In this document: piece by piece, positions 9,301-59,380 of the stretch | Position numbering within the stretch: position 1 is the first letter of the stretch | Layout of the letters: every line of letters starts with the position of its first letter | Assembly (NCBI GenBank): GCA_031283155.1 | Contig: JAITCI010000032.1 | Coordinates: 7,175-71,174, forward strand | Reading direction: 5' to 3' | Length of the DNA: 64,000 bases | Source of the DNA: Spirochaetota bacterium | Lineage (GTDB): Bacteria; Spirochaetota; JAGLSM01; JAKPMW01 | Notes under the pieces: generated by a model | What the model saw: the letters and a program-made list of their open reading frames with translations, nothing else | What the model was told of the DNA's origin: nothing | Database searches by the model: none | Made by a program: the position numbers and the translations under genes

Positions 9301-10143
9301 CTAATAGGCTGGTGCCGGAGTGAGATCTATTCCTTTTTCCTCCGCATATTTTTCCGCCCTTTTCTTGCAGGTCAGACAAAGCGAAGTAAGATTGACCGCC
9401 GCAGCGTCTTCTACAGTGCCGCTGCTTATTACACCGCCGGCGTCTCTGCTCATATTCACATGAGAACAATCTTCGTAATAATGGAATTTACCGCCAGCCG
9501 GCGTCCAGTATACGGTATTCGAATTCACCAACTGCTCAACCTGTTGAGAATACTGCTCGGCGGAGAGCGGGTTGAAATCGATACCAAAAATGCCCGCGAT
9601 AACCAGCGCCGCGCCGGCAACCACGCCCAATAATGCCTTTTGCTTCTCATCGAGATCCTTATTGGTCAGGATGAGGATGAGCAGGGGCAGGAACGCGATA
9701 ACGGCGACGATAACCCCAAGCTGGGTTTGCAGGAAAAATTTAACCTTGTCGCGCTCGGAAGCCGGGTCGAGATGATTTGCCTTTTTCCAGAGCAGGGAAC
9801 CGATCACCACAAGAACCAGATCGATCACAATCAGCGCGATCAGCCAGGTCATAAAGGGGATGGGCGGATCAAACGAGGTTTCACCTTTGACGAGCAGGAC
9901 GATAGCCGCCGCTTCCGCCGCAATCGCAAGCACCCACAGGATGATCGCGATAACACGGAAATTTTTAGCGCTCGCCTTCGCTTCCGGCGGGGGGGTAAAG
10001 CGCACACGCGAAACTTCCGGCGCGCTTGTTTGCACAGGTCTTCTTGCAGCAGCGACCGGGGCAGCCTTTGGAGCCGCTTTTTTGGTTGAGGACCCGCGCG
10101 CTGAGGATCCGCGTGCTGACGTAGTTTTTTTTGTTGTTGCCAT
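9301..10143 (-). CDS. hypothetical membrane protein with a basic AKP-rich N-terminal tail, 4 predicted TM helices and a C-terminal Cys/His zinc-ribbon-like module
   Basis: Start ATG 10143 (MATTKKTTSARGSS...KKAAPKAAPVAAARRP) with RBS aagagg. Hydrophobic segments follow. The C-terminus reads FHYYEDCSHVN...CLTCKKR. Confidence 0.5.
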   Translation of the reverse strand: MATTKKTTSARGSSARGSSTKKAAPKAAPVAAARRPVQTSAPEVSRVRFTPPPEAKASAKNFRVIAIILWVLAIAAEAAAIVLLVKGETSFDPPIPFMTWLIALIVIDLVLVVIGSLLWKKANHLDPASERDKVKFFLQTQLGVIVAVIAFLPLLILILTNKDLDEKQKALLGVVAGAALVIAGIFGIDFNPLSAEQYSQQVEQLVNSNTVYWTPAGGKFHYYEDCSHVNMSRDAGGVISSGTVEDAAAVNLTSLCLTCKKRAEKYAEEKGIDLTPAPAY

Positions 10144-10208
10144 AAACACCTCTTTGTATAGTTTAGGAGGATAATCCATTTCAATAATACAATTATTTGA
10201 ATTTTTTA

Positions 10209-11693
10209 TCAATGGCTTTTTTCGCTCTCCGTAAAATCCAGGATGGAAGATATTCGTCCGGGCTGCGCCCAGCTCATGGTTCCCGCCATTTTGGACGAAA
10301 GCAGATATTGCTCAATGGCGGGATCGGATAATTGCGCAAGCAGCGATTCGGCCTTGCTTTCCTCCGCGCACGGAATGAATGCCTGCAGGGACTGGTTCGC
10401 CTGCCATACGCCCGCGAATAACTGCGGGCGGAAAGAGGCTTTCCCATAAGCCTCCCACACAATTTTGTACTTTTGGAAATTATATTTACCCACACCCAGG
10501 AGCGCCCACCAGATACCGCGCTGTATATACGCCTGTATCAAAGTGCCTTTCCGATTGATCAGAATATCCCTGAATTGGCGCAGGTAGTCCCGCAACAAGG
10601 GGGCGTTATCGAGTTCCGATGGGGTAAGCGGTTTGCCTGTTTTGTCGTTATAGGGCAACAAAACCCATTTCGCCGGAAGCGCGCTCTGTTTGAAATTGTT
10701 TTTGGTTATCAGGGGGTATACATATTTTTTGGGCAGGAGATATATATCATTTACCCTGCACCGGAGCGTATCCATTTCTTCATACTTGTCAAACACGAAC
10801 ACCCCTATCGCCCCGCAGGGATTTATGCCCTGGCGGGGCTTTGCGTCGGGGGAGACCTGTATCTTAGGGATATTTATGGAACCGTCGGTGTCTGATGAAA
10901 TAAGCAGCGATCCGCCAATTTCGCGCGCCGCGCCTCTGTGTTCCGTCCATGTATCTTTCCCGAAGAGATACCAGGGGATGGATTCCGATTGTGTACTTTG
11001 CTTCTGAAAACACGCAAGCCCATAGCGGGTCGAGATATGCGCAAACACCTCCAGATTTTCAAAGTCGTACACGGAGCGCAAAGAATAGACGGAATCATAT
11101 ATTTTGAATTGCCGGAACCGCGCGTGCGCGTCATTCAGGAATAAAGACAACGGCAAAAAAAATACTGCCTTGCCGCCCGGAACCAGATTGCGGTATATGC
11201 ACTTCTGGATCACAAGCGCGGCGATATCCATTCTGGAACCGCCCAGAAGCAGCGCCTGCGGATTATCCACCAAATCATATTCGATAAACCATTTTTTTGC
11301 GGGTTCCCTGTACTCCGCCGGTAAATCCACAAAATTGCACCAGGGCGGATTGCCGAATACAACGTCAAAGCTCTCCCCTAAGGCCATGATGTCGCTGTTT
11401 ATAAAATTCGTCCGCATATCCGCGTCATACGCATGGGCGAATTTTTCGAGCGCGCGGGTATACGCGGCGGTGTTCAGCTCCGCCCCAAAAAGCCGCTGGA
11501 TCGGCAAGTTACCGGGCGCATAGCCCCGCTCGAACCCATACTGTACCAGCGCGGCGAGCAAATGCCCCTCGCCCATCGTGGGGTCAAAAATGGTTTTTCC
11601 GGCAATCCAGTCGTCAAAAAGATCATAGCGCTCTATGGCAAATTTTGCCCACTTGTACGGCGTGTATACAGCGCCTATGGACAGATTATTCAC
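10209..11693 (-). CDS. gamma-class N6-adenine DNA methyltransferase (Eco57I/TaqI-like N6_Mtase plus C-terminal specificity domain), orphan
   Basis: Motif I FDPTMGEGHLL and motif IV VVFGNPPW. The GTG start at 11693 overlaps the pgm stop (GTGA). No restriction endonuclease gene is adjacent. Confidence 0.7.
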   Translation of the reverse strand: MNNLSIGAVYTPYKWAKFAIERYDLFDDWIAGKTIFDPTMGEGHLLAALVQYGFERGYAPGNLPIQRLFGAELNTAAYTRALEKFAHAYDADMRTNFINSDIMALGESFDVVFGNPPWCNFVDLPAEYREPAKKWFIEYDLVDNPQALLLGGSRMDIAALVIQKCIYRNLVPGGKAVFFLPLSLFLNDAHARFRQFKIYDSVYSLRSVYDFENLEVFAHISTRYGLACFQKQSTQSESIPWYLFGKDTWTEHRGAAREIGGSLLISSDTDGSINIPKIQVSPDAKPRQGINPCGAIGVFVFDKYEEMDTLRCRVNDIYLLPKKYVYPLITKNNFKQSALPAKWVLLPYNDKTGKPLTPSELDNAPLLRDYLRQFRDILINRKGTLIQAYIQRGIWWALLGVGKYNFQKYKIVWEAYGKASFRPQLFAGVWQANQSLQAFIPCAEESKAESLLAQLSDPAIEQYLLSSKMAGTMSWAQPGRISSILDFTESEKSH

Positions 11694-17124: not shown

Positions 17125-18282
17125 GTGCGCATCCTGCTCATCCGTTTAAGCTCGCTCGGCGATATCGTTCTCACAACCCCTGTATTCGCGTTTATCAAAG
17201 AAGCCGTGCCCGACGCCGAACTCGATTTTCTTTGTTATACACAATATAGCGCAATTATGGCGCAATATCCGGAAATCCATCGGGTTCTTTGCTTTCCTAA
17301 GCAGGAAATGACGCGCGCGCTCCGCCGGATGCGCCTGATTCGCTTTTGGCGGCTTGCGAAGAGCTTGCGATGCGATCTCGCCGCCCGCCGTTACGATCAT
17401 GTCATTGACCTCCACAATGTGACCGACAGCGCTTTGGCCGCGCTTATGTGTCCAAAAGCGATCCGTACCGGCAACAGACGGCAGCTCCTGACTGTTTTTT
17501 TCGCGCACCGGCTCCGCCTGGAGGATCGCAACGAACGCGCCGAGATGCACGCCTCGTTGATCGCGATGCGCACCGTGCTGGAGAGCGGCGCTCTGCCCGC
17601 CGCCGCTGCATTGCCCATCCTACCCAAAAGCGCTGTATTTTTCGACGAAAACGCGCGCGCGGAGGCGGAGCGGTTTATACAGGTTCAATCTCTTGCCGGA
17701 AAAAAACTGGTGGGGATATATCCAGCCGCCTCGCGCGATTATAAACGCTGGCCTGCGGAGAATTTCGCGCGTCTCGCCGGAAAAATCGTGGACACCTGGG
17801 GGTACGCCATCGTGCTTCTGGGCGCTGCCTCCGACCGCGCACTCATGGAAAAAATCGCAGCCGAAATATATACGCAATGCGCCGACGCCGCAATCGCGGA
17901 TTCCGCGGGAGAGCCGATTTCCGAAAATGTAGTTATCGCCTGCGGGCTGGATCTTCCTGTGGTCTGCGCGCTGCTCGCGCGTCTTGATTTTTGTATCGGC
18001 GCGGACTCCGGGCTCATGCACATAGCCGCCGCGCTTAATGTCCCGCAGGTTGCGCTCTTCGGACATTCCTCATTGCTCAAATTTTATCCGCTTTCAGACA
18101 AGGCGCGCGTGGTGCGGCACGATCTGCCCTGCTCTCCATGCACTCCGCAATGCGCCCGGAAATGCGCGCACCGGATTTGCATCGAAGGCATTACCGTCAC
18201 GGAGGTTTGGCGGGAGGCGGTGCAGCTTATCGCGGAGTATTATCCAGAGCTTGTGTGTTCCTGTGGCCGATCAGCCGAATAA
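17125..18282 (+). CDS. glycosyltransferase family 9 (ADP-heptose:LPS heptosyltransferase-like)
   Basis: The N-terminus MRILLIRLSSLGDIVLTTPVF is the GT9 hallmark. GTG start with RBS aggagg. Confidence 0.7.
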   Translation: MRILLIRLSSLGDIVLTTPVFAFIKEAVPDAELDFLCYTQYSAIMAQYPEIHRVLCFPKQEMTRALRRMRLIRFWRLAKSLRCDLAARRYDHVIDLHNVTDSALAALMCPKAIRTGNRRQLLTVFFAHRLRLEDRNERAEMHASLIAMRTVLESGALPAAAALPILPKSAVFFDENARAEAERFIQVQSLAGKKLVGIYPAASRDYKRWPAENFARLAGKIVDTWGYAIVLLGAASDRALMEKIAAEIYTQCADAAIADSAGEPISENVVIACGLDLPVVCALLARLDFCIGADSGLMHIAAALNVPQVALFGHSSLLKFYPLSDKARVVRHDLPCSPCTPQCARKCAHRICIEGITVTEVWREAVQLIAEYYPELVCSCGRSAE

Positions 18283-21515: not shown

Positions 21516-23000
21516 TCATGCGCCCGGGCGCAGAGCGGAACGAATTGCTTCGCGCCCACCGGATACGTCGATAACCCTTGTATGCCGCGCCTGGAGATTA
21601 TCCAGACCCCGCAGAGCCTGCGGAATGACTACGCCTGTTATATCGCGCAAGACGTCCATGATCATATATTCGTCATCGGCGCGCCCTTCATGAGCCAGAG
21701 CGTCATATACCGCCTGGCATACCTTATAGGGCGAGGCGGTGGCGGCGATCACCGCCGGAGTGACGTCCCCGCTTTCTTCGCGATAGCGCGCGAGCGCCGC
21801 CGAAGCCACTGCGGTATGGGTATCTATAAGATATTCCCGCGCGGTAAAAACGCGGCGGATTTCCTTCGCGACATCCTCTTCAGATATGGAAGAGGCGGCA
21901 ATGATACCGCGTATCGCGCTGCGCATATCTTTCCCGATTGAAAAACACCCCTCTTTTGCGAGTCCATTCTGCCAATTCGTTACACGCTCGGCGTCGCCCC
22001 CGGATACGGAATAGAGGAAGCGTTCGAGGTTTGAGGAGATCAGAATATCCATGGAGGGACTTGATGTGCAGATAAATTCCCTGTTCATATCGTATATGCC
22101 GGTCTCAAAAAAATCCGTCAGTACGCGATTGGCATTCGACGCGCAGATGAGCTTGCTTACCGGAAGCCCCATCAGTTTGGCGTAGTACGCCGCGAGGATA
22201 TTGCCGAAATTACCCGTGGGTACGGCCAGGCAAACCGGCTCGCCCATGCCTATACTGCCATTCGCGGTCATCGCAAGGTAGGCATGATAATAGTAGACGA
22301 TCTGCGGAACAAGCCGCCCCCAGTTGATCGAATTTGCGGAAGAGAACGCAAACCCCTCTGCGGCGAGTTCGGCGGTAAACGCGGCGTCGTTAAAAATTTC
22401 CTTTACCATATTCTGGCAATCGTCAAAATTCCCCTGCACCCCAATGACCGCGGTATTCGCGCCGTCCGTGCTGACCATCTGCTTTTCCTGAATGGGGCTC
22501 ACGCCGCTTTTCGGATAAAACACGATGATGCGCGTCCCCGGCACATCCTTAAAACCCTCAAGGGCGGCCTTGCCGGTATCGCCCGAGGTGGCGACCAGAA
22601 TAACGATTTCCTTATCGGAACCCTGTTTGCGTGCCGCCGCGCGCAGAAGATGCGGCAGAAGCTGGAGCGCGAGATCCTTAAAGGCCGCCGTCGGGCCATG
22701 CCAGAGTTCAAGGTAGGCCGTGGTATCATCGTAAAACGTGATCGGCGCGATGGATGCAGCGTCAAAATTCGCGCTGTAGCCTTGAGCGACGGCGTCATGC
22801 AGTTCATCGTCGGTATAATCAGTGAGATACAGGGAAAGGATACGCTCCGCGATCTGCGGATATGCCGTCGGCAGAACACCGGGTTCCAGCCTCGGGAACG
22901 ACTCGGGCACAAACAGCCCCCCGCCCGGCACCATCCCTTTGTGTATGGCGAAGGAGGAAGCCACGGGAGCGGAATTTCCGCGCGTACTATGATAGAGCAT
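21516..23000 (-). CDS. thrC: threonine synthase (long form)
   Basis: PLP-lysine region FKDLALQLLPH, the N-terminal domain MLYHSTRG, and a length of about 494 aa. Start ATG 23000 with RBS ggagg. Confidence 0.8.
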   Translation of the reverse strand: MLYHSTRGNSAPVASSFAIHKGMVPGGGLFVPESFPRLEPGVLPTAYPQIAERILSLYLTDYTDDELHDAVAQGYSANFDAASIAPITFYDDTTAYLELWHGPTAAFKDLALQLLPHLLRAAARKQGSDKEIVILVATSGDTGKAALEGFKDVPGTRIIVFYPKSGVSPIQEKQMVSTDGANTAVIGVQGNFDDCQNMVKEIFNDAAFTAELAAEGFAFSSANSINWGRLVPQIVYYYHAYLAMTANGSIGMGEPVCLAVPTGNFGNILAAYYAKLMGLPVSKLICASNANRVLTDFFETGIYDMNREFICTSSPSMDILISSNLERFLYSVSGGDAERVTNWQNGLAKEGCFSIGKDMRSAIRGIIAASSISEEDVAKEIRRVFTAREYLIDTHTAVASAALARYREESGDVTPAVIAATASPYKVCQAVYDALAHEGRADDEYMIMDVLRDITGVVIPQALRGLDNLQARHTRVIDVSGGREAIRSALRPGA

Positions 23001-23067
23001 CTTTCCTCCGTCTCCGATAGCGTCAAATTTTACATTTTTAGGGCGGAAAGGAAAGCGCCACTTTGTT

Positions 23068-23967
23068 TTACTTATTTCGCGCGATCCGGAAGCCCAGATT
23101 GCTGTACGCGCTCCCCGGGTTAGCGCTGCCGCGGCAGGCCGAACGCATAACCTGCTCCGTATTGCCCCAGTCGCCGCCGCGCTGGACCCGATCCGAACCC
23201 GAAGCCGGACCGGCAGCCGCTCCTCCGGTATACGCTCCATACCAATCCCAGCACCATTCCATCAAGTTTCCGTGCATATCATACAAGCCCCAGGGATTGG
23301 CCGCCTTCCTGCCAACCTCGCGCGTCATGCCGCCGCTATTGGCGGCGTACCATCCGGCGTCGCTTATCTCCGCTCCGGTGGTATACGCTGTGGTTGTTCC
23401 CGCGCGGCAGGCGTACTCCCACTCCGCTTCGGTGGGTAAGCGATACCCGTTTGCGTCGGCGTTCATCGTGACCGCATCCCATCCTTCAACATTGCCCGTG
23501 TACAAATATTGAAATTCCACAGACTGCCAGGCGGCGGCGGGGACTGCGCCCCAGCTTGCGGGATCCGTGCCGCCGTTTATGCTGTACACCGGCGTCAGCC
23601 CGTCCATGACGCTCAGCTTGTTGCAAAACACCAGCGCGGTATACCAGCTTACCTGCTCTGCGGGGCGCTTCCCCTGAATTTCCCCGCTTGCCGGAGAATC
23701 CGCAAAATAGCTCGGATTCGTTGCCATGACGGTTTGGTATAATTCCTGCGTGACCGCGTACTTGCCCATATACAAGCCCTTCGTGAGCGTGACCGAATGC
23801 GGCGTTTCATCATCCGCGCGTCCTGCTTCGGTTTCGGGGCTGCCCATGATAAATGTACCGGGCTGTACCCATACCAATTCCACTCCGCTCGGCGGTTTCG
23901 CTGTGCAGGCCGCCAAAAAAATGCCGGAAACCAAAAAAAATACGCGAAAAAGCAAATTCAGTTTCAT
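23068..23967 (-). CDS. FGE-sulfatase/SUMF1-domain lipoprotein (formylglycine-generating-enzyme family)
   Basis: Signal plus lipobox (FLAACTAK) and hallmark YDMHGNLMEWCWDWY with Cys/Trp-rich C-terminal blocks. Confidence 0.7.
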   Translation of the reverse strand: MKLNLLFRVFFLVSGIFLAACTAKPPSGVELVWVQPGTFIMGSPETEAGRADDETPHSVTLTKGLYMGKYAVTQELYQTVMATNPSYFADSPASGEIQGKRPAEQVSWYTALVFCNKLSVMDGLTPVYSINGGTDPASWGAVPAAAWQSVEFQYLYTGNVEGWDAVTMNADANGYRLPTEAEWEYACRAGTTTAYTTGAEISDAGWYAANSGGMTREVGRKAANPWGLYDMHGNLMEWCWDWYGAYTGGAAAGPASGSDRVQRGGDWGNTEQVMRSACRGSANPGSAYSNLGFRIARNK

Positions 23968-24138: not shown

Positions 24139-24167
24139 TTGACAAAGGCGCGTCTTTCCGTGAAAAT
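24139..24167 (+). promoter_or_regulatory. putative sigma70-type promoter for the ACP operon
   Basis: TTGACA (24139..24144), a 17-nt spacer, then gaaaat preceded by TG. It lies about 100 nt upstream of ATG 24271. Confidence 0.3.
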
Positions 24168-24270
24168 CATATAAAGAGAGCCGGAGTGTGTACATTTGCG
24201 GTTTTCGGCAGACGCATTTGCCTCGCGCAGGGATGAACGGCTGCGCAATTTTATCCGACGGAGGAACACC

Positions 24271-24516
24271 ATGACGAGAGATGAAGTGATTGCTGTCATC
24301 AAAAAAAATATTCTCGATAACCTCGAGGATCTCGAGGAGAGCAGCATCGATCCCGAAAAATCCATGAAAGACCTGGGCGCGAATAGCCTGGACATCATTG
24401 AGGTTGTCTCATGCTCCATGCGCGAACTGAATCTCAAGATTCCGCGCACCGAGCTTGCGGACGTCAAAACCATTGGGCAGCTTGCCGACAAATTCATGGA
24501 ACAGATCGGAAAATAA
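24271..24516 (+). CDS. acyl carrier protein (dedicated, pathway-specific)
   Basis: 81-aa product. DLGANSLDIIEV contains the phosphopantetheine-attachment Ser. RBS ggagg. Confidence 0.75.
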   Translation: MTRDEVIAVIKKNILDNLEDLEESSIDPEKSMKDLGANSLDIIEVVSCSMRELNLKIPRTELADVKTIGQLADKFMEQIGK

Positions 24517-25793
24517 TGAGCGACGCACTCAAATACAGCCTTGCCGACTTTTTTTATAACGACAGTAAGAACGTCCTTGATCCGCCGTCCGATTTTGAGG
24601 AGTGGATGAGCGACCCCAGCGTTCGGGTGGGCTTCAGCTTTTATGAGCAAAAGCTCTTGGCCGCCCCGCGCTCCTCAACCGAGATCCTCTCCAACGTCGA
24701 TGGAAAAAAGCGGCGCGTTATTAATCTGATGTCGTATAACTATCTTGGCCTCTCCACGCACCCGGAAGTGATCGAGGCGGCCATCGAGGGCCTCCGAAAG
24801 TATGGGCTCGGCGCGTCCGGCGCGCCCCTGCTCTCCGGCACGTATGATCTTCATGTCGAATTTGCGCGGCAACTTGCGGCTTTTAAGGGCAAGGAGGACT
24901 GCATCCTGTATTCGAGCGGGCTCGGCGGCAACGTCGGCGCTATCCAGGGGATTTTGCGCAAGGGCGACGTATTTATTATGGATGAAAAATGCCACAAGAG
25001 CCTTGTGGACGGCTGCACGCTTTCGGGCGCGAAGATGCTCTTTTTCAATCATAACAATATGCAGAACCTCGACGATCTCCTCGCGAAGAACAAGGGCAAG
25101 CGCATTCTGGTTGCGGTGGAGGGCGTGTACTCGATGGATGGGGATCTCGTGAAGCTGCCCGAGGTGGTCGAGGTATGCGAACGCTATCCCAACACGGCGA
25201 TCTATATCGACGAGGCGCATTCCACCCTGATGTTCGGCAAGAACGGCAAGGGCGTGGCGGAGCATTTCAACCTCGAAGACAAGGTCGGTATCAGCTTTGG
25301 CACCCTCTCCAAATCCTTCGGCGGCGTGGGTGGGTTCATCTGCTCCAACGCGCCGATCATCCGGTATCTCAAGGGCTATTCCTCGCCCTTCCATTTTTCA
25401 TGCGCGCCCTCGCCGGTGGTGATCGCGGGACTCATCAAGGCGCTCGAAGTGGCGACGCGCGACTCGAGCCTGCGCGACAAGCTCTGGGAGAACACGAAAT
25501 ACTTCAAGGAAAGGCTCGACGGGATGCACCTCGATCTGGGCGGCACCGAAAGCCAGGTCATTCCCATTATCATTGGCGCGTCCGGCGAGATGCTCTACAG
25601 CATGGCCGCGAGTATGCAAACCAGGGGGCTCTTTTTGCAGCCGGTTGATTTTCCGGCGGTTCCGGCGGAGGCGCGCCGCTTCCGCATCTCGATGTCGGCG
25701 CAGCTCACAAAGGCAGAGATGGACGAGGCGCTCAATATCATTGAGGACGTGGTTGCGCGGGGGATGCGCGAGGCCGGTCTCCTGAAAACCTGA
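24516..25793 (+). CDS. alpha-oxoamine synthase family PLP enzyme (serine palmitoyltransferase / 8-amino-7-oxononanoate synthase-like)
   Basis: PLP-lysine motif GTLSKSFGGVGGF, DEAHS, and a glycine-rich loop SGLGGN. Its ATG overlaps the ACP stop (TAATG). Confidence 0.75.
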   Translation: MSDALKYSLADFFYNDSKNVLDPPSDFEEWMSDPSVRVGFSFYEQKLLAAPRSSTEILSNVDGKKRRVINLMSYNYLGLSTHPEVIEAAIEGLRKYGLGASGAPLLSGTYDLHVEFARQLAAFKGKEDCILYSSGLGGNVGAIQGILRKGDVFIMDEKCHKSLVDGCTLSGAKMLFFNHNNMQNLDDLLAKNKGKRILVAVEGVYSMDGDLVKLPEVVEVCERYPNTAIYIDEAHSTLMFGKNGKGVAEHFNLEDKVGISFGTLSKSFGGVGGFICSNAPIIRYLKGYSSPFHFSCAPSPVVIAGLIKALEVATRDSSLRDKLWENTKYFKERLDGMHLDLGGTESQVIPIIIGASGEMLYSMAASMQTRGLFLQPVDFPAVPAEARRFRISMSAQLTKAEMDEALNIIEDVVARGMREAGLLKT

Positions 25794-25806
25794 CGCGGAA
25801 AATACC

Positions 25807-26370
25807 ATGACGGAGACCGACGCCCTCCTGAAAAAATTTCGCAAAAAGCCGCTCGTCTCGCAGGAAGAGCCGGAGGCGAGCGCTTCTTTTTCATCCATTA
25901 TTTTTGAACGCGGGGAACTGAAGCGCATCCTGCCGCACCGCGAGCCGTTTTTATTGGTGGACGCGGTTACGGGCGTGGATCTCGCCGACGGGGATAACGC
26001 GAAGAGTCTGATCTGCGGGCGGCGGTTTATGGATCCCGCCGATCCTGTCTTCCAGGGACATTTCCCGGATTTTCCGCTGTACCCGGGCTGCCTCCAGGTG
26101 GAGATGTGCGGGCAGCTTGGTCTGTGCCTCGCTTTTTTTCTGAAGCAGGGGAGTATCAGCATTCCCGCCGACGCCGTGCCGCCTGCGGTTCGGGCGACGC
26201 GCTCCCTGGGCGCACTCTTTCTGGAACCGCTCCTCCCGGGAATGGAAGCAACCATCTATGCGCGCGGGATTGCCTATGACGGCTATTTCGGGACGATCCT
26301 CGGGCAGGTGATCGCCGACGGCAAGGTTTGCTCGGTATCGATGGCCGAAGTCATGTTTCTGGATGCGTGA
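25807..26370 (+). CDS. FabZ/FabA-like hotdog-fold 3-hydroxyacyl-ACP dehydratase paralog with N-terminal extension
   Basis: LPHREPFLLVD and FQGHFPDFP match the FabZ catalytic signature. It is a second copy alongside the housekeeping fabZ at 58918. Confidence 0.7.
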   Translation: MTETDALLKKFRKKPLVSQEEPEASASFSSIIFERGELKRILPHREPFLLVDAVTGVDLADGDNAKSLICGRRFMDPADPVFQGHFPDFPLYPGCLQVEMCGQLGLCLAFFLKQGSISIPADAVPPAVRATRSLGALFLEPLLPGMEATIYARGIAYDGYFGTILGQVIADGKVCSVSMAEVMFLDA

Positions 26371-27109
26371 ACCTTTGCCCGCCCTGTCTTCCGCTTTTCC
26401 CGAAACGCGCGCCCTCTTCGAAGAGCGCAGTTGTGTCTTTCTGCTTGCCGATCTCGCCGCCATTCCGCAGGAGGAAGCGCTCGCGGCGCTTCTGCCCGAA
26501 GAGCGCGCGATATCCGATTCGATGGCCATCGCGCGCCGACATGAGTTTGCCGTGGGGCGGATGCTCGCCCATGCGGCGCTCGCGCGTCTTTCGGCGCGGG
26601 ATGCGCCGATTCTGCGCGGGGAGCGCGGCGAACCGCTCTGGCCTGAGGGCATAGTCGGGAGTATCGCGCACACCAAACAAAAAGCGGCGGCTCTCCTCGC
26701 TGCGCGCCGGCCGGATATCTCCCCGCCCGGGATCGATCTGGAACATATTGCGCGCGGACTCTCCGATCCCGCCTGGGAGCATATACTGAGTCCATCGGAA
26801 GAGCAATTTTTCTCCCGTTCTGCGGCGCAGGCGCTGCGGATGATCGTTTTTTCCTGCAAGGAGAGCCTCTATAAAGCGCTCTACCCGGTATGCGGGGAAT
26901 ATTTTGGCTTTCATGACGCCGGGGTATCGCAGGAGAGCGCCGCCCTGCTGCAAGCGCGATTTTCGGATGCTGCGCAAGGCGCGCAGCAATCCGGTTGGCT
27001 GACGCTGACGCTGCATCGCGCCTTATGCGCGTTTCCCTCGGGCAGCGCTTTCTCCTGCCATTACGAGATCGACGACGAGGATGTGCTGACGGTGCTTATG
27101 CCAAAATGA
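26363..27109 (+). CDS. 4'-phosphopantetheinyl transferase (Sfp/EntD type)
   Basis: GSIAHTKQ...GIDLE and FSCKESLYKA motifs. It overlaps the dehydratase gene by 8 nt. Confidence 0.7.
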   Translation: MREPLPALSSAFPETRALFEERSCVFLLADLAAIPQEEALAALLPEERAISDSMAIARRHEFAVGRMLAHAALARLSARDAPILRGERGEPLWPEGIVGSIAHTKQKAAALLAARRPDISPPGIDLEHIARGLSDPAWEHILSPSEEQFFSRSAAQALRMIVFSCKESLYKALYPVCGEYFGFHDAGVSQESAALLQARFSDAAQGAQQSGWLTLTLHRALCAFPSGSAFSCHYEIDDEDVLTVLMPK

Positions 27110-27121: not shown

Positions 27122-28534
27122 TCAATGCGGTACCGGGTCTGTATCTTCATCATCTTTGGGACAGACGATGTTCAGGAAGATGGCTATAATGGCGGCAGGC
27201 ACAATGCCTGATCCCCCGAAAATTAACTGAATGGCGTCCGGCAGTTGCGATAAAATAGTTGGGCTGGAACCCATTCCAAAGCCGAGTCCCAGGGATACCG
27301 AAACGATTGTGACAATACGCGGCGTAATTTTTTCCTTTGTGATCAGCTGGATACCGCTTACAACGATGGAAGCGAACATCATCACCGCCGCTGCGCCCAA
27401 AACGCTTTGGGGCATAGCGGACACCACTGCGGCCAGTTTCGGGAATAATCCGCAGGCAATCAAAAAGACAGCGCCCAGGGATATCGCAAACAGATTGACC
27501 ACTTTTGTCATTGCTACCAAACCCACATTTTGGCTGAAAGATGTATTGGGCAGTACGCCGAAAATGGCGGCAAAAGTGGAACCCAGTCCGTCGCATATAA
27601 TACCGCCGGAAAGTTCTTTGTCTGTAGGTTCCCTGCCCATGCCGCCTACGGTAATGCCCGCGATATCGCCTACGGTTTCCACCGTGGTCACAATAAACAT
27701 AATGGCTATGGGAATAATGGCTGCCAGGTCAAATTCAATGGGTACGGGAAACAAAGAGGGAAGCGACAGGAGCGAGGCTGCTTCCACGCCGCCCCATTGC
27801 AGCACCCATGAGCAGGCGCGCTCCGCGCCGCCCGCGTCTGTGTATGTAATGGGCAGCATAAGCCCCATGACGGCGCAGACAACGTACCCGGTAATTATTC
27901 CAAACAAAATGGACGCCAAACTGGTTATGCCTTTTGTAAAATGCTTGAGCGCTACAATAACGACGAGCACAATACAGCCAACGAATAAGTTAGCCGCAGA
28001 GCCGAAATCGCCCGCCCCTGCGCCGCCTCCGAATGAGTTTATGCCCACAGGTATAAGGGAAAGGCCAATGGCCATGACCACGCATCCGGTGACGACGGAA
28101 GGGAAAAATTTCCGGAGGGGTTTCAGGAATATACCCAGCACACCCTCAAACAGTCCGCCGATAATGCTTGCGCCCAGAATGGCACCATAGGCATATACAT
28201 TCCCGCCCAAACCGGCGCCTATGCTCCGGCCTACGCCAATAAAACCGGAGCTGGTACCCATAACGATGGGCAGCTTTCCTCCTATGCGCCCGATTGGGAA
28301 TAACTGCACCAATGTGACCACGCCCGCGACGAACATGGCGCTTTGAATGATCAAAATTTGTTCAGGAGAGCCCGACACTATTCCGCACGCAGTGCTGATA
28401 ATAATGATGGGCGCCAGGTTTCCGGCAAACATGGCCAGTACGTGCTGCATACCCAGGGGGATCGCCTGTCTGAATGGCAGCCGTCCGGATATTTCATACG
28501 GAGAAGAATACGTAATCTGTTTTTCCATTTTCAT
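27122..28534 (-). CDS. nucleobase:cation symporter-2 (xanthine/uracil permease family)
   Basis: 470-aa polytopic protein with NCS2 signature regions (QHVLAMFAGNLAPIII, gate-like GGIICDGLGSTFAAIFG). Confidence 0.8.
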   Translation of the reverse strand: MKMEKQITYSSPYEISGRLPFRQAIPLGMQHVLAMFAGNLAPIIIISTACGIVSGSPEQILIIQSAMFVAGVVTLVQLFPIGRIGGKLPIVMGTSSGFIGVGRSIGAGLGGNVYAYGAILGASIIGGLFEGVLGIFLKPLRKFFPSVVTGCVVMAIGLSLIPVGINSFGGGAGAGDFGSAANLFVGCIVLVVIVALKHFTKGITSLASILFGIITGYVVCAVMGLMLPITYTDAGGAERACSWVLQWGGVEAASLLSLPSLFPVPIEFDLAAIIPIAIMFIVTTVETVGDIAGITVGGMGREPTDKELSGGIICDGLGSTFAAIFGVLPNTSFSQNVGLVAMTKVVNLFAISLGAVFLIACGLFPKLAAVVSAMPQSVLGAAAVMMFASIVVSGIQLITKEKITPRIVTIVSVSLGLGFGMGSSPTILSQLPDAIQLIFGGSGIVPAAIIAIFLNIVCPKDDEDTDPVPH

Positions 28535-28710
28535 ATCCTTCCTTTATCTGATTATATACCAGGATGTCTTCTTTTACAATAAGCCGCGTAATTTATTCCG
28601 GTTATTCGCGCGTAAAAGTATCAGATGTATTTTCTTTTCGCATATATGTGTGCATAATGGATAATCATAAATAGCCGATTAAAGCACAGACGCTGGGGAG
28701 GTTGACTGCC

Positions 28711-31410
28711 ATGCAATTTTTTCTGAACGGAAACGAAGTGAGCTGCGATACAAATCCCGAGCGCAGTTTGCTGCAATATTTGCGTGAAGATAAGCATATT
28801 ACCTCCGTAAAAGATGGCTGCTCCGCCCAGGCCGCTTGCGGCGCGTGTATGGTCGAGGTGGACGGGAAACCCCGCCTCGCCTGCGTCACACGTATGTCCT
28901 CCCTTGAGAATGCGCATATTACAACCATCGATGGCTGGCCGGAGAACGTGCGGCAGATTTTGGGCCGCGCTTTTGTGGATGCGGGCGCTGTGCAGTGCGG
29001 CTTTTGCACCCCGGGTATGCTCACACGGACAAAAATTCTTCTTGAAAATAATCCATCGCCGACACGGCAGGAGATCATCGCCGCGCTTAAACAAAACGTC
29101 TGCCGCTGCACCGGGTATGTGAAGATCATCGAAGCGATAGAACTTGCCGCGCGCGCGCTTCGCGCCGGGCGCGGGATCGAGCTGTATGCGCCCGGAAAGG
29201 TGGGGACGCGCCAGCCTAAATACGACGCCTGGTATAAGGCTATCGGGCAGAGTCCCTTTACCAACGATTTGACGCTTCCGGATATGCTCTTTGGCGCGCT
29301 GCGCATGAGTGATTACCCCAGGGCGCGCGTTCTTTCCATTAGCACCGAAAAGGCTGCCGGTATGCCCGGAGTCGAACGCATCCTGACCGCCGCTGATGTT
29401 CCGGGGCAGCGCAAAATCGGACTCATCGAAAATGACTGGCCTCTTTTTATCGCCGCAGGCGAAATCACGCACTCCATTTCGGACGTTTTGGCCTGCGTGG
29501 TTGCGGCAAGCGAGGAGCAGGCGCGCGCGGCAGCGGCGACAATAGAGATTGCGTATGAGGAATTGCCGGTTGTTTCGGATATGGAAATCGCGGCGCGCGG
29601 CGGGATACAGGTGCATGACGACAGGCCAAATTTGGCAAAGGAATGTTTTCTTAAACGAGGCTGCAATCCGGATGCAGACGCGATCCTTGCGGCTTCCGCA
29701 CACGTTGCGCGCGGGGTTTTTACAACGCAGCGTGTGGAACACGCCTTTTTGGAGCCTGAATGCGCGATTGCGGAACCCTGGGTGATGGACGCCGACGTGC
29801 GCACAGCCGCGCGGCGAAATGCTTTGACACCCGAAGGGGCGTCAAGGGCGCAGGATGCGGGCGTCAAAATATACACGCAAAGCCAGGGGCCGTACGAGGA
29901 TCGAAGGCAGCTCGCGCTTCTGCTTGGTCTGCCCGAATCCAGAATCAATGTGGTACTCCTTGCTTCCGGCGGCGGCTTTGGCGGCAAGGAGGATCTGACC
30001 GTACAGGGCTTCGCGGCTCTTGCCGCGTATCTCATCAGGCGTCCCGTCAAGGTGCGTCTTACGCGCACCGAGTCAATCACGATGCACCCTAAACGCCATC
30101 CCTTTATTATGGAATACGCGGTGGGCTGTGATCGCCACGGCAAATTAACCGCAGTGAAGGCGCGGCTTCAGGCGGACACGGGTTCGTATCTGTCGGTCGG
30201 CTGTAAAGTGATCGAGCGCGCCGTGAGTCACGCTGCCGGCGCCTATTTTGTACCCTGCATGGACGTAGAGGGCCGGGCCTGGTATACAAATAACATTCCG
30301 AGCGGCGCGATGCGCGGTTTTGGCGTAAACCAGGTGGTCTTTGCGATGGAGTCCTGCATTGCGGAACTCTGCGAAAAGGGAGGGTTTGATCGCTGGCAGT
30401 TCCGCTATGATAACGCGCTGGTGGAGGGTTCTCTCTTCGCGTCGGGACAGATACTGCATAACGTAGCGGTGCGCGAAACCCTGCAGTCGCTCAAGGATGA
30501 TTTCTACAGGCATCGCTATACGGGAATTGCCTGCTCCATCAAAAACTGCGGGGTGGGCAACGGCATGAAGGACGAATGTGAAATCAAGGTGGAGATTGCC
30601 GCCCCTGATCACATCGTGCTGCATCACGGGTGGTCGGAGATGGGACAGGGTGTGGATACGGTGGCTGTGCAGATGCTCTGCGACAAGACCGGCATTCAGC
30701 CGGAGTATGTGACTGTGCGGGTGGAGACGCGGTTTGAGGCGAGGGCGGGGATGACCACTTCCAGCCGAGGCACCTCATTGCTTGGCAACGCTGTACTCAA
30801 TGCGGTGGCGAAGATACTCGCCGATATGGATACGGGAAAGACGATTGCCGATCTCGTCGGAAAGACATATCCCGGGTATTGGTGCTGCGACTGGAGTACC
30901 GAGATAGGTTCTTCCGACCCGCGCGAAAACGCGGCCTCCATGCCGCGCGCGGGATCTACGCCTCCATGCTCCGACCCGCCCTGTATACACTATTCGTATA
31001 GTTATGCAGCGCAGCTTGTGATTCTGAATGAAGAGAGCGGCAGGATTGAGCGGATTGTGGCGGCGCATGACGCGGGGCGGATTGTGAATCCCACACTCTT
31101 TGAAGGGCAGGTGCAGGGCTCGGTACACATGGGCATAGGCTACGCTCTTTCCGAGGATCTCCCGATGAAGGATGGGCGGCTTGTCCATACGCGCTTCCGC
31201 GAGCTTGGCCTCGTGCCGATAGCCGACGTGCCGGAGATCGTCGTGAAGGCGGTAGAGGTGCATGACCCGCACGGTCCTTACGGCGCGAAAGGTATAGGGG
31301 AGATCGGTCTCGTCGCGACGGCGGCGGCTATAGCAGACGCCTACGCCCAATATGACGGCGAGCGCAGATATACGCTGCCGCTCAAGCCCGTACAAAAACA
31401 GGAGCGCTGA
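28711..31410 (+). CDS. molybdopterin-dependent aldehyde oxidoreductase (xanthine dehydrogenase family, MOP-like: 2x[2Fe-2S] plus MoCo domains, no FAD domain)
   Basis: N-terminal CSAQAACGACMV and CGFCTPGM...CRCTGY clusters. A large C-terminal MoCo domain (GGGFGGK, ...EIG...). ATG 28711 with RBS ggggagg. Confidence 0.8.
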   Translation: MQFFLNGNEVSCDTNPERSLLQYLREDKHITSVKDGCSAQAACGACMVEVDGKPRLACVTRMSSLENAHITTIDGWPENVRQILGRAFVDAGAVQCGFCTPGMLTRTKILLENNPSPTRQEIIAALKQNVCRCTGYVKIIEAIELAARALRAGRGIELYAPGKVGTRQPKYDAWYKAIGQSPFTNDLTLPDMLFGALRMSDYPRARVLSISTEKAAGMPGVERILTAADVPGQRKIGLIENDWPLFIAAGEITHSISDVLACVVAASEEQARAAAATIEIAYEELPVVSDMEIAARGGIQVHDDRPNLAKECFLKRGCNPDADAILAASAHVARGVFTTQRVEHAFLEPECAIAEPWVMDADVRTAARRNALTPEGASRAQDAGVKIYTQSQGPYEDRRQLALLLGLPESRINVVLLASGGGFGGKEDLTVQGFAALAAYLIRRPVKVRLTRTESITMHPKRHPFIMEYAVGCDRHGKLTAVKARLQADTGSYLSVGCKVIERAVSHAAGAYFVPCMDVEGRAWYTNNIPSGAMRGFGVNQVVFAMESCIAELCEKGGFDRWQFRYDNALVEGSLFASGQILHNVAVRETLQSLKDDFYRHRYTGIACSIKNCGVGNGMKDECEIKVEIAAPDHIVLHHGWSEMGQGVDTVAVQMLCDKTGIQPEYVTVRVETRFEARAGMTTSSRGTSLLGNAVLNAVAKILADMDTGKTIADLVGKTYPGYWCCDWSTEIGSSDPRENAASMPRAGSTPPCSDPPCIHYSYSYAAQLVILNEESGRIERIVAAHDAGRIVNPTLFEGQVQGSVHMGIGYALSEDLPMKDGRLVHTRFRELGLVPIADVPEIVVKAVEVHDPHGPYGAKGIGEIGLVATAAAIADAYAQYDGERRYTLPLKPVQKQER

Positions 31411-31458: not shown

Positions 31459-31617
31459 GTCCCGCGTTGGGCATGGATGCCCACCAACGCGGGAAAGAGC
31501 GTACATTACCCTACGGGTACTTCGCCGTGTACGCGCTCGGGTCAGAACATCCTGTTCTAGCCCTCGCAAGAGCGTACATCCATGTACGCGCTCGGAGCAG
31601 AACGTCCTGTTCTAGCC
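31459..31617. repeat. hairpin plus imperfect tandem repeat carrying two family-B palindromes (cagaacatcctgttctagccct / cagaacgtcctgttctagccct)
   Basis: Inverted repeat cccgcgttgg...ccaacgcggg at 31459..31493. The unit agagcgtacat...gtacgcgctcgg.gcagaac.tcctgttctagccct occurs twice (31486..31560 and 31561..31617). Confidence 0.65.
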
Positions 31618-32874
31618 CTTGAACTGCGAGAGGATGATGCTGGAGTTCTGTCCGCCAAAGCCAAAGCCGTTTGACAAAACGTGCCTGACCGCGCATTCGC
31701 GGGTTTCCGTTACGATGTTCAGATCGATCTTCGGATCCCTTTCAAAGATGTTGATCGAGGGATGGACGATCCCCTTGCAGAGGGCGAGAATGGCGGCGAT
31801 GGCCTCCACGCCTCCGGCGGCGCCGATCAGGTGCCCGACCATTGATTTTGTGCTGTGTACCATAATACGGTCGGCTTCCGCGCCGAAGAGGCGGCGCAGG
31901 GTGGTTGTCTCTGCGAGATCGCCGATATTGGTTGAAGTTCCATGCGCGTTGACGAGATCGATATCCGACGCGCTGAGCCCGGCCGATTCCAGAGCCATAT
32001 TTACGGACATCGCAATCCCGCGCCCATCGGGATGCGGCGCAACCAGATCGAAGGCGTCGCACGAGAGACCGTAGCCCGAGAGTTCGGCGTAAATCCGCGC
32101 GCCGCGCTTTTTTGCGTGTTCCAATTCCTCCAGGCAAACGACACCCGCGCCCTCGGCGAGTACAAAGCCGTCGCGGTTTTTGTCGAAGGGGCGGCTTGCG
32201 GTTTCGGGGGAGTCGTTTCTGCGCGAGAGCGCGCCGATGGCGCTGAATCCCGACAGACCGCTCATGTTGAGGCAGCTTTCGCAGCCGCCGGCCATCATAA
32301 CGTCCGCCGTGCCTGCCTTAATCATGGCGGCGGCGATCCCAATCGCGTGGTTGCTGGTGGCGCAGGCGGAGTTGACCGAAAAATTCGGCCCCTGGAAGTT
32401 ATAGTCCTTCGCAAAATAGGCCGGGGGTGTGTTGGGTATGACGCTGACCACGTAGAACGGGGATACAAATTCAACCGAGTTGTGTTTGTCGATGCTCTGG
32501 CAGGACTTATAATGCCCGGCGTTGCCGCCGTCGCCGGTTCCGATAATGGCGCCATAGCGGTACGGCGCGCTATCGACGTCTTCCCGCAGGATCCCGGAGT
32601 CCCTGAAGGCCTGCACGGCCGCAATCCGCGCAAATACTATGAAGCGTTCGAAGCGGTTTACCTTTTTTTTGGGGAGATAATCACCGATATTTTCGGGGAG
32701 GTCGACCTCTCCGCCAATTTTTACCGGAAGTATCGAAGTATCGGTATACTTGAGGGTACGGACGCCGTTTTTTCCGGCGATGAGGTTGTCCCAAAACTCA
32801 GGAACGGAGGCGGCGATGGGATTGATGGTTCCCATTCCCGTAATGACGACTCGTTTTTGGGCGGAATTCTGCAT
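31612..32874 (-). CDS. fabF: beta-ketoacyl-ACP synthase II
   Basis: Active-site Cys block (NSACATSNHAIG), His-His blocks (MVHSTKSMVGH, NGFGFGGQN), and a KVVITGMG N-terminus. ATG 32874 with RBS aagagga. Confidence 0.85.
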   Translation of the reverse strand: MQNSAQKRVVITGMGTINPIAASVPEFWDNLIAGKNGVRTLKYTDTSILPVKIGGEVDLPENIGDYLPKKKVNRFERFIVFARIAAVQAFRDSGILREDVDSAPYRYGAIIGTGDGGNAGHYKSCQSIDKHNSVEFVSPFYVVSVIPNTPPAYFAKDYNFQGPNFSVNSACATSNHAIGIAAAMIKAGTADVMMAGGCESCLNMSGLSGFSAIGALSRRNDSPETASRPFDKNRDGFVLAEGAGVVCLEELEHAKKRGARIYAELSGYGLSCDAFDLVAPHPDGRGIAMSVNMALESAGLSASDIDLVNAHGTSTNIGDLAETTTLRRLFGAEADRIMVHSTKSMVGHLIGAAGGVEAIAAILALCKGIVHPSINIFERDPKIDLNIVTETRECAVRHVLSNGFGFGGQNSSIILSQFKG

Positions 32875-33040
32875 TTTGAGGATCCTCTTTCGGTGCGCGC
32901 ACAACCTGATATTTACGGTATACCGGAGCGGCAGTAAAAGTCAAGCGCGCGGAACTATGAAGGGACTTTTTGACATTTTTTCAATTATATGCTATCACTT
33001 AAAGAACTCTATAAATCATTAAAATATTATGGAGGAATCT

Positions 33041-57301: not shown

Positions 57302-57322
57302 GATGACTCTCCGGAGGTGTGC

Positions 57323-58917: not shown

Positions 58918-59376
58918 ATGGCAAACACGATGGATATCAATGAGATCATGAAAATTCTGCCGCATCGGTATCCCATTCTGTTGGTTGATCGGATTCTTGA
59001 TTATACCGAGGACACCATTACCGGTATCAAGAATGTGACCATCAACGAGCCCTTTTTTCAGGGGCATTTTCCCGGGCACCCCATCATGCCCGGCGTTTTG
59101 ATCGTCGAGGGCATGGCGCAGTGCGCGGGCTGTCTCATGCTGCGGAACGTCGAAAAGCCAGAAGATCACGTCATGTATTTTATGAGTCTGAACAATATCA
59201 AATTCCGCAAGCCGGTGCTGCCCGGAGATACCCTCATATACAAAATGAAGGCGATCAGTTCTACCGGAAGAGCCGCGAAGATTAAGGGCGAGGCGTATGT
59301 TGAGGATAAAAAGGTATGCGAGGCTGAAATGACCGCCATGCGTATCGCGCGCGGCAAGGATTCCTCGGAAGGATAA
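58918..59376 (+). CDS. fabZ: 3-hydroxyacyl-ACP dehydratase FabZ
   Basis: LPHRYPILLVDRI and FFQGHFPGHPIMPGVL signatures. Confidence 0.85.
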   Translation: MANTMDINEIMKILPHRYPILLVDRILDYTEDTITGIKNVTINEPFFQGHFPGHPIMPGVLIVEGMAQCAGCLMLRNVEKPEDHVMYFMSLNNIKFRKPVLPGDTLIYKMKAISSTGRAAKIKGEAYVEDKKVCEAEMTAMRIARGKDSSEG

Positions 59377-59380
59377 TGAT

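Follow-up and report, generated by a model that had tools for sequence, protein, structure and literature searches.

A carrier-protein-linked alpha-oxoamine synthase gene block in a Spirochaetota bacterium, a candidate chain-release module for amino-ketone lipids

What does a bacterium make with an alpha-oxoamine synthase (AOS) that is encoded beside a carrier protein of its own? Enzymes of this family open the pathways to sphingolipids, sulfonolipids, biotin, haem and several signals. The locus studied here lies in a 64-kb stretch of Spirochaetota DNA, hereafter the window, and holds four packed genes within 24139..27109, all on the forward strand of the ORF list and in the order acyl carrier protein (ACP), AOS, dehydratase (DH) and phosphopantetheinyl transferase (PPTase; Table 1). 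The original prediction read these genes as a self-contained, sphingoid-base-like amino-lipid pathway. The ORF list and domain searches bear out the four genes, and the ORF coordinates reproduce the 8-nt overlap of DH and PPTase (26363-26370) as well as the TAATG stop/start (24514-24518). The translations contain each of the motifs DLGANSLD, GTLSKSFGG, LPHREPFLLVD/FQGHFP and FSCKESLYKA. An Rfam search upstream of the block returned no riboswitch or other RNA.

Table 1. Positions of the gene block and associated features in the window.
Feature	Position	Strand	Description
ACP gene	ORF 24196..24516; likely 24271..24516	+	private acyl carrier protein, 81 aa, AcpK-like
AOS gene	24516..25793	+	alpha-oxoamine synthase, 425 aa, PLP enzyme of distinct clade
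DH gene	25807..26370	+	FabZ-like 3-hydroxyacyl-ACP dehydratase, 187 aa, conserved N-terminal extension (RKKP motif)
PPTase gene	26363..27109	+	Sfp/EntD-type 4'-phosphopantetheinyl transferase, 248 aa
Sigma-70-like promoter match, TTGACA-17-GAAAAT	24139..24167	+	upstream of ACP gene; 10/12 consensus positions, pattern match only
KS2, FabF-like beta-ketoacyl-ACP synthase	31612..32904	-	conserved partner of module, 4.5 kb downstream
Housekeeping fabZ	58918..59376		in bamA-skp-lpxD-fabZ-lpxA-ruvX-lpxC block

The carrier protein probably starts at the ATG at 24271, which has a GGAGG 7 nt upstream and gives the 81 aa found in all homologues. It contains a PP-binding domain (PF00550, 3.8e-09) and falls outside the housekeeping AcpP family (TIGR00517, 32.4 bits, cut-off 70.45); among NCBIfam models, PRK07117 fits it best (69.5 bits, cut-off 79). 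Orthologues in the related loci L084, L090 and L088 are 89-98% identical, with dN/dS of 0.01-0.04, and tblastn of the window, using an E. coli AcpP sequence as the probe, found no second ACP. The PPTase has the two-lobed 4PPT_N (PF17837, 2.5e-21) plus ACPS (PF01648, 1.7e-11) arrangement and a GIDLE motif alongside its FSCKESLYKA, and is thus of the Sfp type (group II); it weakly matches the PptT, Npt and EntD models. Its counterpart in L084, which occupies the corresponding place, is 40% identical, and L003, L006, L013, L085, L091, L092 and L099 also encode a PPTase. The two proteins are therefore not generic housekeeping copies, as the ACP resembles AcpK rather than AcpP and the PPTase is Sfp/EntD-type.

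The dehydratase has likewise been set apart from its housekeeping counterpart. The window does contain a second, housekeeping fabZ, as predicted (PF07977, 6e-35), and this is distinct from the DH, which has a FabA-like domain (PF07977, 1.4e-13; ApeI-like and FabA domains in precomputed annotation) and falls below the housekeeping FabZ cut-offs (TIGR01750/NF000582, 50.6 vs 155 and 54 vs 113). His85 of the GHFP motif and Glu99 are invariant in 56 homologues, and both catalytic residues align with those of the window's own FabZ. The AF2 model (pLDDT 93) has FabZ structures as its top Foldseek matches (target TM 0.85-0.94), so that the hot-dog fold and the catalytic His and Glu make the DH a FabZ-type protein with predicted dehydratase activity. 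Its N-terminal extension, first put at 45 aa, is closer to 29 aa, because 41 residues precede LPHR in the DH and 12 in the housekeeping FabZ.

Comparison with related loci, which the original prediction had called for, reveals that all related loci covering those positions have the ACP-AOS-DH core, unchanged and with its genes side by side, in several phyla (Spirochaetota, Brevinematales, Aminicenantes, FCPU426 and others), that the DH adjoins the AOS in every locus reaching beyond the AOS 3' end, and that the PPTase recurs in several loci. In about 20 loci, the core forms the 3' end of a KS1-KR-HMGS-ECH1-ECH2-ER-ACP-AOS-DH(-PPTase) array that also has a linked FabF-like ketosynthase, a type II FAS/PKS-like cluster of 10-11 genes with an HMGS cassette, an enoyl reductase (ER) and two ketosynthases. 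The genes from KS1 to ER together supply a complete type II elongation cycle and, in addition, a beta-branching cassette of the bacillaene type. The best models for KS1, HMGS, ECH1, ECH2 and ACP of these relatives are PRK07103, TIGR01835, PRK07112, PRK07110 and PRK07117, which we take to be built on B. subtilis pks proteins; the ECH2 match (PRK07110) lies above its cut-off. The relatives' ER is an SDR adjoining the ACP, with a Y-x6-K motif and the FabL enoyl-ACP reductase as best NCBIfam match. Classical HMGS cassettes include a malonyl-ACP decarboxylase in which Ser replaces the active-site Cys, a role that the intact Cys-His-His triad rules out for KS1; since it keeps the Cys, KS1 is a true condensing enzyme.

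The self-contained character first proposed for the block does not hold up in the light of these loci, in which it is the tail of a longer cluster, most of which is missing here. None of KS1, KR, HMGS, ECH1, ECH2 and ER was found by tblastn in the 64-kb window, so that it lacks the HMGS cassette; a search of sequence databases with the ER as query yielded no orthologue (SDR2) assignable to the window's MAG, such MAGs being incomplete, and the six genes might lie on another contig of the MAG. The window also has no acyltransferase, acyl-ACP synthetase, KR or ER, and loading and reduction would hence rely on unlinked genes. Are the four genes then a non-functional remnant, left by deletion of the six upstream genes? 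The presence of all six in about 20 related loci and their absence from the window would suit such an origin, which we nonetheless regard as very unlikely. The four ORFs are intact with coupled starts, the catalytic residues are retained, and two contigs of the nearest relatives also lack the HMGS cassette yet carry ER-ACP-AOS-DH. Across the module dN/dS is 0.01-0.14; the values that bear on a remnant (0.03-0.14) include those against a close, 92%-identical relative (0.03 for ACP, 0.12 for AOS), for which dS is unsaturated at about 0.4. The reduced module is therefore under purifying selection.

A further partner has stayed nearby. The flanks were originally said to give no pathway context, a statement that needs revising, as KS2 is the orthologue of the ketosynthase linked to the module in most related loci with available flank (L001, L003, L006, L007, L009-L015, L085, L091, L092, L099, L101 and L103, besides L084, whose KS2 is 74% identical and convergent with the cluster). 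In the window it is parted from the module by an inserted permease/Xdh pair. KS2 has an intact Cys-His-His triad and scores essentially as a FabF equivalog (TIGR03150, 482.8, cut-off 493.75), and judged by this score it could instead be the general FabF of the organism. Neither the xanthine permease, Xdh nor the FGE lipoprotein has a conserved link to the module among the related loci. ThrC adjoins the module in only two other spirochaete-type loci.

To which branch of the family does the AOS belong? Its Aminotran_1_2 domain (6e-54), PLP-binding Lys, stacking His, pyridine-N Asp and O3' His place it among the fold-type I PLP enzymes of the AOS family, and it reaches no curated subfamily cut-off. 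It lies below CqsA (NF005526, 187/428), ALAS (TIGR01821, 237/338.55) and the Kbl models (NF005394/TIGR01822, 328 vs 460 and 276 vs 493), is 29-35% identical to E. coli Kbl, and has no tdh-like gene adjoining it. Within its own clade, identity is 63-84% across phyla.

The biotin pathway, with the AOS as BioF, is ruled out by the scores, the identity and the lack of bio genes. The AOS scores 318.5 bits against TIGR00858 (cut-off 426.45) and is 26-28% identical to E. coli BioF, the lowest value among the references compared; bioA, bioB and bioD are absent from the 64-kb window and from more than 20 related loci. In a variant, the ACP, DH and KS would make pimeloyl-ACP for a BioF-type AOS. The ACP, KS, DH and SDRs beside the AOS are superficially like a Desulfovibrio bio cluster with ACP, FabF, FabG and FabZ homologues, reportedly described by Rodionov et al. 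in 2004, and the TIGR00858 score is not far under those of other subfamilies. We find even this variant hardly credible given the missed cut-off, the low identity and the absent bio genes, and the HMGS/ECH cassette of the relatives would produce a branched chain, incompatible with pimelate. With BioF set aside and no housekeeping ACP or PPTase in the block, the central part of the original prediction, a dedicated carrier-protein-dependent AOS module, stands.

Serine palmitoyltransferase (Spt) is a closer comparison. A bacterial Spt is the nearest homologue of the AOS with a solved structure, the AOS is 37-40% identical to Sphingobacterium Spt, and its long N-terminal region is Spt-like. The AOS could thus be an Spt that condenses L-serine with a C14-C18 acyl-ACP to 3-ketosphinganine, which unlinked enzymes would later turn into ceramide by reduction and N-acylation; a 2-enoyl substrate would give the 4-ene analogue. 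Spt pairs with a specialised ACP in Proteobacteria (PMC9386255), and Salinispira pacifica has a major unidentified aminolipid next to iso-C15:0 (PMC4511686), with the long cluster present in an assembly under that species name, a circumstantial link. We nevertheless consider a sphingolipid pathway improbable. The three curated Spt models give about half their cut-offs or less (321.5/640 for CFB, 274.7/500 for Beta, 228.8/670 for Alpha), the Spt loop GSRFLNG reads GAPLLSG in the AOS, and Spt Met271 is replaced by His, Asn or Gln across the AOS clade. Moreover, neither the window nor the flanks of about 30 related loci contain a homologue of ceramide synthase or ceramide reductase. The sphingoid-base-like label of the original prediction had general AOS similarity as its sole basis.

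Our preferred reading, held with moderate confidence, is that the block acts as the chain-release module in a dedicated carrier-protein acyl pathway that yields an alpha-amino-ketone, a sphingoid-like lipid. Acyl-ACP use has precedents in the AOS family, in Spt with a specialised ACP (PMC9386255) and in cysteate acyl-ACP transferase (CFAT; PMC9304779; PDB 7u7h). The identities of the genes, their catalytic residues, the conserved linkage and the purifying selection are observed; the order of steps, the ACP as carrier of the AOS substrate, the chain length and the amino acid are inferred. The Sfp-type PPTase would turn the private AcpK-like ACP into its holo form, on which an acyl chain would be built or finished, with KS2 condensing a primer with malonyl-ACP. 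A ketoreductase from elsewhere would reduce the product and the private DH would dehydrate the 3-hydroxyacyl-ACP, after which an enoyl reductase, encoded beside the ACP in relatives and absent from the window, may saturate the chain. The AOS would then join the acyl-ACP to a small amino acid in a PLP-dependent decarboxylative Claisen condensation, giving holo-ACP, CO2 and the alpha-amino-ketone. The acyl chain is probably fatty-acyl-like, because in most relatives the core sits behind KS1-KR-HMGS-ECH1-ECH2-ER. As these relatives carry both the elongation cycle and the beta-branching cassette, the ancestral product was probably a saturated amino-ketone or amino-alcohol lipid with a methyl branch, possibly of the iso type. 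The window's lineage would have lost the branching cassette, and the window the ER as well, leaving an unbranched, possibly 2,3-unsaturated variant; because a linked ER is absent, a 2-enoyl acyl substrate is possible in the window's genome.

Is the product necessarily a lipid? A C4-C8 acyl-ACP joined to Gly or Ala would give a small diffusible amino-ketone, acting as a signal or dimerised or cyclised to a pyrazine or pyrrole, and in the cassette-bearing relatives the acyl donor could be, for example, isovaleryl- or 3-methylcrotonyl-ACP. Analogies exist in the CqsA/LqsA autoinducer synthases and in the RedL chemistry of prodiginines. The related clusters have no lipid-tailoring or head-group genes and the Kbl-type models score level with Spt, as such a product would lead one to expect. 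An HMGS cassette acting on acetoacetyl-ACP would moreover give a C5 unit, by analogy with the alternative isovaleryl-CoA route of Myxococcus (PMC5389471). We still judge a small product unlikely, as the full KS/KR/DH/ER cycle and the FabF-type KS suggest several rounds of elongation, and the cluster has no conserved adjoining sensor or regulator gene.

The chain-release module that we favor shares features with several known systems. In the 2-undecylpyrrole branch of prodiginine synthesis (RedP/RedQ/RedR and the AOS domain of RedL), dedicated ketosynthases and an ACP likewise build an acyl chain that an AOS-type PLP domain releases with an amino acid. In RedL, however, the AOS is fused into a PKS-type protein of several domains, the product is a pyrrole pigment precursor, and the branch occurs in an unrelated taxon without a FabZ-like DH or an HMGS cassette. 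The AcpK-PksF-PksG-PksH-PksI HMGS cassette of B. subtilis corresponds to the relatives' cassette genes, and the window ACP is of its AcpK-like type. In contrast to the pks cassette, the version in relatives occurs without a modular PKS, within a discrete type II system with an AOS at its end, and its KS1 retains the active-site Cys; the window lacks the cassette altogether. The Spt-ACP-ACS genes of Caulobacter and Sphingomonas also set an AOS-family gene beside a dedicated non-AcpP ACP, with acyl-ACP as the presumed substrate (PMC9386255). That system, however, relies for ACP loading on an acyl-CoA/ACP synthetase, for which the window has no gene, whereas the partners here are a FabZ-like DH, an Sfp-type PPTase and a FabF-like KS, joined in relatives by ER, KR and the HMGS cassette; the module AOS also differs from that Spt in its modest identity, its failure to match the Spt models and the lack of ceramide genes. 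CFAT/SulA of sulfonolipid synthesis is an AOS enzyme as well, CFAT having been shown to begin an amino-lipid from acyl-ACP and an amino acid outside the canonical set (PMC9304779; PDB 7u7h). Finally, the Myxococcus AIB route makes a branched C5 primer for iso-fatty acids de novo by means of an HMG synthase (PMC5389471). The relatives' cassette and ER could do the same on an ACP, whereas the AIB route is CoA-based, works without an AOS and draws on other families of decarboxylases and reductases; the parallel bears only on the relatives.

We found no description of an ACP-AOS-DH architecture with HMGS/ECH in the freely accessible full-text literature searched. As a tentative and rather doubtful extension of the preferred reading, the core and its usual partners may constitute an undescribed, O2-independent route to methyl-branched or unsaturated long-chain amino-lipids, made de novo on a private carrier and shared by horizontal transfer among anaerobic phyla. 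Such a route would cover the 'unidentified aminolipid' of Salinispira pacifica, and the window would represent its minimal variant, with an unbranched, possibly 2-ene-derived product.

In conclusion, bacterial biosynthesis of amino-lipids or amino-ketones would gain a new branch with a distinct, highly conserved AOS clade, which always shares an operon with its own ACP and a FabZ-like DH and usually also comes with a beta-branching cassette of the polyketide style and all the genes of type II elongation. The branch would lie in poorly studied anaerobic lineages and could explain unassigned aminolipids of cultures and environmental lipidomes, while the naturally short and long forms of the cluster offer a ready deletion series for dissecting the roles of its enzymes.

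In the window, a private ACP, an alpha-oxoamine synthase (AOS), a FabZ-like dehydratase (DH) and an Sfp-type PPTase are encoded by a tight module of four genes read in one direction, and ORF calling together with Pfam domains confirms the genes, coordinates and overlaps of the original prediction. The ACP stop overlaps the AOS start in a TAATG, DH and PPTase share 8 nt, and a pattern scan places a 10/12 match to a sigma-70-like promoter upstream; an Rfam search of the module region found no Rfam element. The second fabZ of the window is indeed the housekeeping copy, lying in a bamA-skp-lpxD-fabZ-lpxA-ruvX-lpxC block. The sole correction to what had been observed concerns the N-terminal extension of the DH, put at 45 aa, which amounts to about 29 aa in an alignment with the housekeeping FabZ.

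Coordinates of features in the window and at related loci (L numbers), with identities to the proteins of the relative L084
Feature	Locus	Position	Strand	Identity to L084	Remark
ACP	window	ORF 24196-24516; likely start ATG 24271	+	89%	PP-binding (Pfam); GGAGG precedes start; 81 aa as in all homologues
AOS-family PLP enzyme	window	24516-25793	+	85%	Pfam Aminotran_1_2
DH	window	25807-26370	+	70%	Pfam FabA-like
Sfp-type PPTase	window	26363-27109	+	40%	Pfam 4PPT_N plus ACPS
KS2	window	31612-32904	-	74%	FabF-like ketosynthase
P83	window			58%
TAATG overlap	window	24514-24518
Promoter match	window	from 24139
Threonine synthase	window	21516-23240	-		long type
Threonine synthase	L003	8591-10081
Threonine synthase	L013/L100	19599-21137
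Permease and dehydrogenase	window	27122-31410	-, +
Two 441-aa ORFs	window	2236-3669	opposite
Methylase and 303-aa ORF	window	9301-11693	-
Heptosyltransferase	window	17125-18282
1408-aa ORF	window	50624-54850	+
Outer-membrane/lipid A block	window	54887-61537
Housekeeping fabZ	window	58918-59376
KAS III	window	62447-63379	-
Toxin-antitoxin genes	L003	4035-4307, 6402-7002
Toxin-antitoxin genes	L084	903-1118, 10930-11277
PF03458 gene	L084	10003-10644
Insertions (GWF1_51_8)	L013/L100	6794-8129, 11828-15406
Lipid-related operon	L092	13011-18384	-

The AOS belongs to the alpha-oxoamine synthase family, and it reaches no curated subfamily cut-off among the NCBIfam-type models: it scores 348 bits on TIGR01825 (cut-off 535), 328 on Kbl (460), 321 on Spt-CFB (640), 318 on BioF (426), 237 on ALAS (339) and 187 on CqsA (428). 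Assignments as BioF, Kbl, Spt, ALAS or CqsA thus each fail. Among solved structures its best match is Sphingobacterium multivorum Spt (2e-79); the PLP lysine and the stacking histidine of the AOS line up with Spt Lys244 and His138, and its Asp/His pair with Asp210 and His213. Identity inside its own clade is 63-84%, even across phyla, compared with 37-40% to Spt, 29-35% to E. coli Kbl and 26-28% to E. coli BioF. The clade is marked by a long N-terminus (SLADFFxND...PPxDF..W), by SYNYLGL, by GLGASGAPLLSGT in place of Spt GSRFLNG, and by a polar His, Asn or Gln at the position of Spt Met271, where BioF has Ile and Kbl has Leu. Close homologues (at least 69% identity) occur in Spirochaetota, Brevinematales, Aminicenantes, FCPU426 and unclassified MAGs, and identities then show a gap from 69% down to 40% or less. 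MDR2733953.1, from a Spirochaetota MAG, has the same sequence as the window protein, and the presence of P83/100 and FlaA genes nearby in the window is consistent with that assignment.

The three partner proteins are similarly distinct. The ACP scores 32 bits on the AcpP model TIGR00517 (cut-off 70) and matches best PRK07117, which, going by adjacent PRK numbering, we take for the AcpK-type model of B. subtilis. Domain and family models give the PPTase the two-lobed architecture of the Sfp/EntD type and place it among Sfp-type enzymes. The DH belongs to the FabZ fold family (AF2 model with pLDDT 93, resembling FabZ structures at a target TM of ~0.9) and lies far under the FabZ equivalog cut-offs; the GHFP histidine and the glutamate are invariant in 56 homologues, and the N-terminal extension is family-specific, with a near-invariant RKKP motif. 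Judging by these models, none of the four module genes has a housekeeping or known-subfamily identity.

At all related loci with enough flank, ACP-AOS-DH forms the 3' part of a long cluster, KS1-KR-HMGS-ECH1-ECH2-SDR2-ACP-AOS-DH(-PPTase), which KS2 usually accompanies, either convergent or at the operon head. Even DH homologues as low as 46% identity remain in this same cluster. Best NCBIfam models are PRK07103, presumably PksF-like, for KS1, FabG for KR, prokaryotic HMG-CoA synthase for HMGS, PRK07112 for ECH1 and PRK07110, exceeding its cut-off, for ECH2; by score, KS2 is a FabF equivalog (500 bits, cut-off 494). Cys-His-His is intact in both KS1 and KS2. SDR2 is most likely an enoyl-ACP reductase (ER), because it carries a Y-x6-K motif and has FabL as top match.

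The window holds a reduced form of this cluster. In tblastn searches across the 64 kb with the proteins of L084, KS1, KR, HMGS, ECH1, ECH2 and SDR2 were not found. The two nearest relatives, with AOS proteins 92% and 87% identical to that of the window, also lack the beta-branching (HMGS/ECH) cassette; in both, SDR2-ACP-AOS-DH is still present, preceded by unrelated genes, which leaves ACP-AOS-DH as the invariant core. Purifying selection acts on the reduced module, with dN/dS of 0.028 for ACP and 0.117 for AOS against the nearer relative L088 (dS ~0.4), and of 0.01-0.14 for ACP, AOS and DH against L090 and L084. The original prediction is partly supported: the reading as a dedicated ACP-dependent AOS pathway stands, but the description as self-contained does not, since the core is the 3' part of a larger cluster in relatives.

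Several relatives carry toxin-antitoxin genes (ParE, HicB-like, PemK, HepT/NTP_transf_2) within or edging the cluster, which suggests a hotspot for insertion or mobility. The Spirochaetes GWF1_51_8 locus has ~1.3 kb extra between ECH1 and ECH2 and ~3.6 kb between DH and PPTase. A PF03458 'Gly_transporter' membrane protein directly 3' of the PPTase in L084, also seen at L004, L096 and L097 and limited to one lineage, is a weak hint of a glycine-type substrate. One operon, seen only at L092 and ~1 kb past the PPTase (ending at 12529), could be lipid-modifying: it encodes an LPG_synthase_TM protein, a protease of the Rce1-like kind and an NAD reductase of the 3beta-HSD/epimerase type. Threonine synthase adjoins the window module (its ORF over-extended by ~80 aa at the N-terminus) and, at loci of Brevinematales and Spirochaetes GWF1, recurs with 55-57% identity a few kb past KS2; this neighbourhood may be a remnant of synteny or point to a functional tie with an amino-acid substrate. 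Two genes are inserted between PPTase and KS2 in the window: one for a xanthine-type permease of the NCS2 family, the other for a 902-aa dehydrogenase that fuses 2Fe-2S and molybdopterin-binding parts, with no separate FAD subunit seen nearby. Neither was found at the related loci.

The RedPQR/RedL branch of prodiginine synthesis follows a logic similar to that of the module. Comparable too are Spt with a specialised ACP (PMC9386255) and the cysteate acyl-ACP transferase (PMC9304779; PDB 7u7h). In contrast to these three systems, the module groups a FabZ-like DH, an AcpK-type ACP, an Sfp-type PPTase, a FabF-like KS and, ancestrally, an HMGS cassette with an AOS that stands alone and belongs to a clade of its own. 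The full-text literature searched yielded no description of an AOS/BioF architecture with HMGS, ECH and ACP.

What would such a module make? The analysis establishes what the genes are, that their catalytic residues are intact, that their linkage is conserved and that purifying selection acts on the module. We infer that the private ACP, once activated by the PPTase, would carry a chain made or finished by KS2 and the private DH together with a KR, and possibly an ER, encoded elsewhere; the AOS would then release this chain as an alpha-amino-ketone through a decarboxylative condensation with an amino acid. The predicted chain of long-form relatives is saturated and methyl-branched, perhaps iso-, because a full elongation set and the beta-branching cassette are present; the closest analogy for a branched primer is the HMG-based isovaleryl route of Myxococcus (PMC5389471). 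The window product would be unbranched and, because the linked ER is missing, possibly derived from a 2-enoyl-ACP, as originally proposed. The label 'sphingoid' is unproven. The rest of the window holds no bioA/B/D or ceramide-type genes. An assembly labelled Salinispira pacifica contains ECH2-SDR2-ACP-AOS-DH; the lipids of the type strain include a major unidentified aminolipid, and its iso-C15:0 content is unusually high (PMC4511686), a circumstantial lead to the cluster product.

Elsewhere in the window, a FabH-type KAS III stands alone, with DUF192 and CBM48 genes downstream on the opposite strand; fab genes are therefore scattered in the genome, and KS2 could double as a general FabF. The outer-membrane/lipid A block, with bamA (POTRA and Omp85) and skp (OmpH), and a family-9 heptosyltransferase are present, and the spirochaete appears, from its genes, to make LPS. 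Directly upstream of bamA is a 1408-aa ORF with no Pfam match at E<=1e-4. Two fully overlapping 441-aa ORFs, neither with a Pfam match, are candidate genes. A 494-aa protein whose methylase domain is of the Eco57I restriction-modification type precedes a 303-aa ORF lacking a Pfam match, and the pair may form a type IIG/IIS restriction-modification system.

In conclusion, this gene family is both widespread and strongly conserved, has yet to be characterised and lends itself to experiment.
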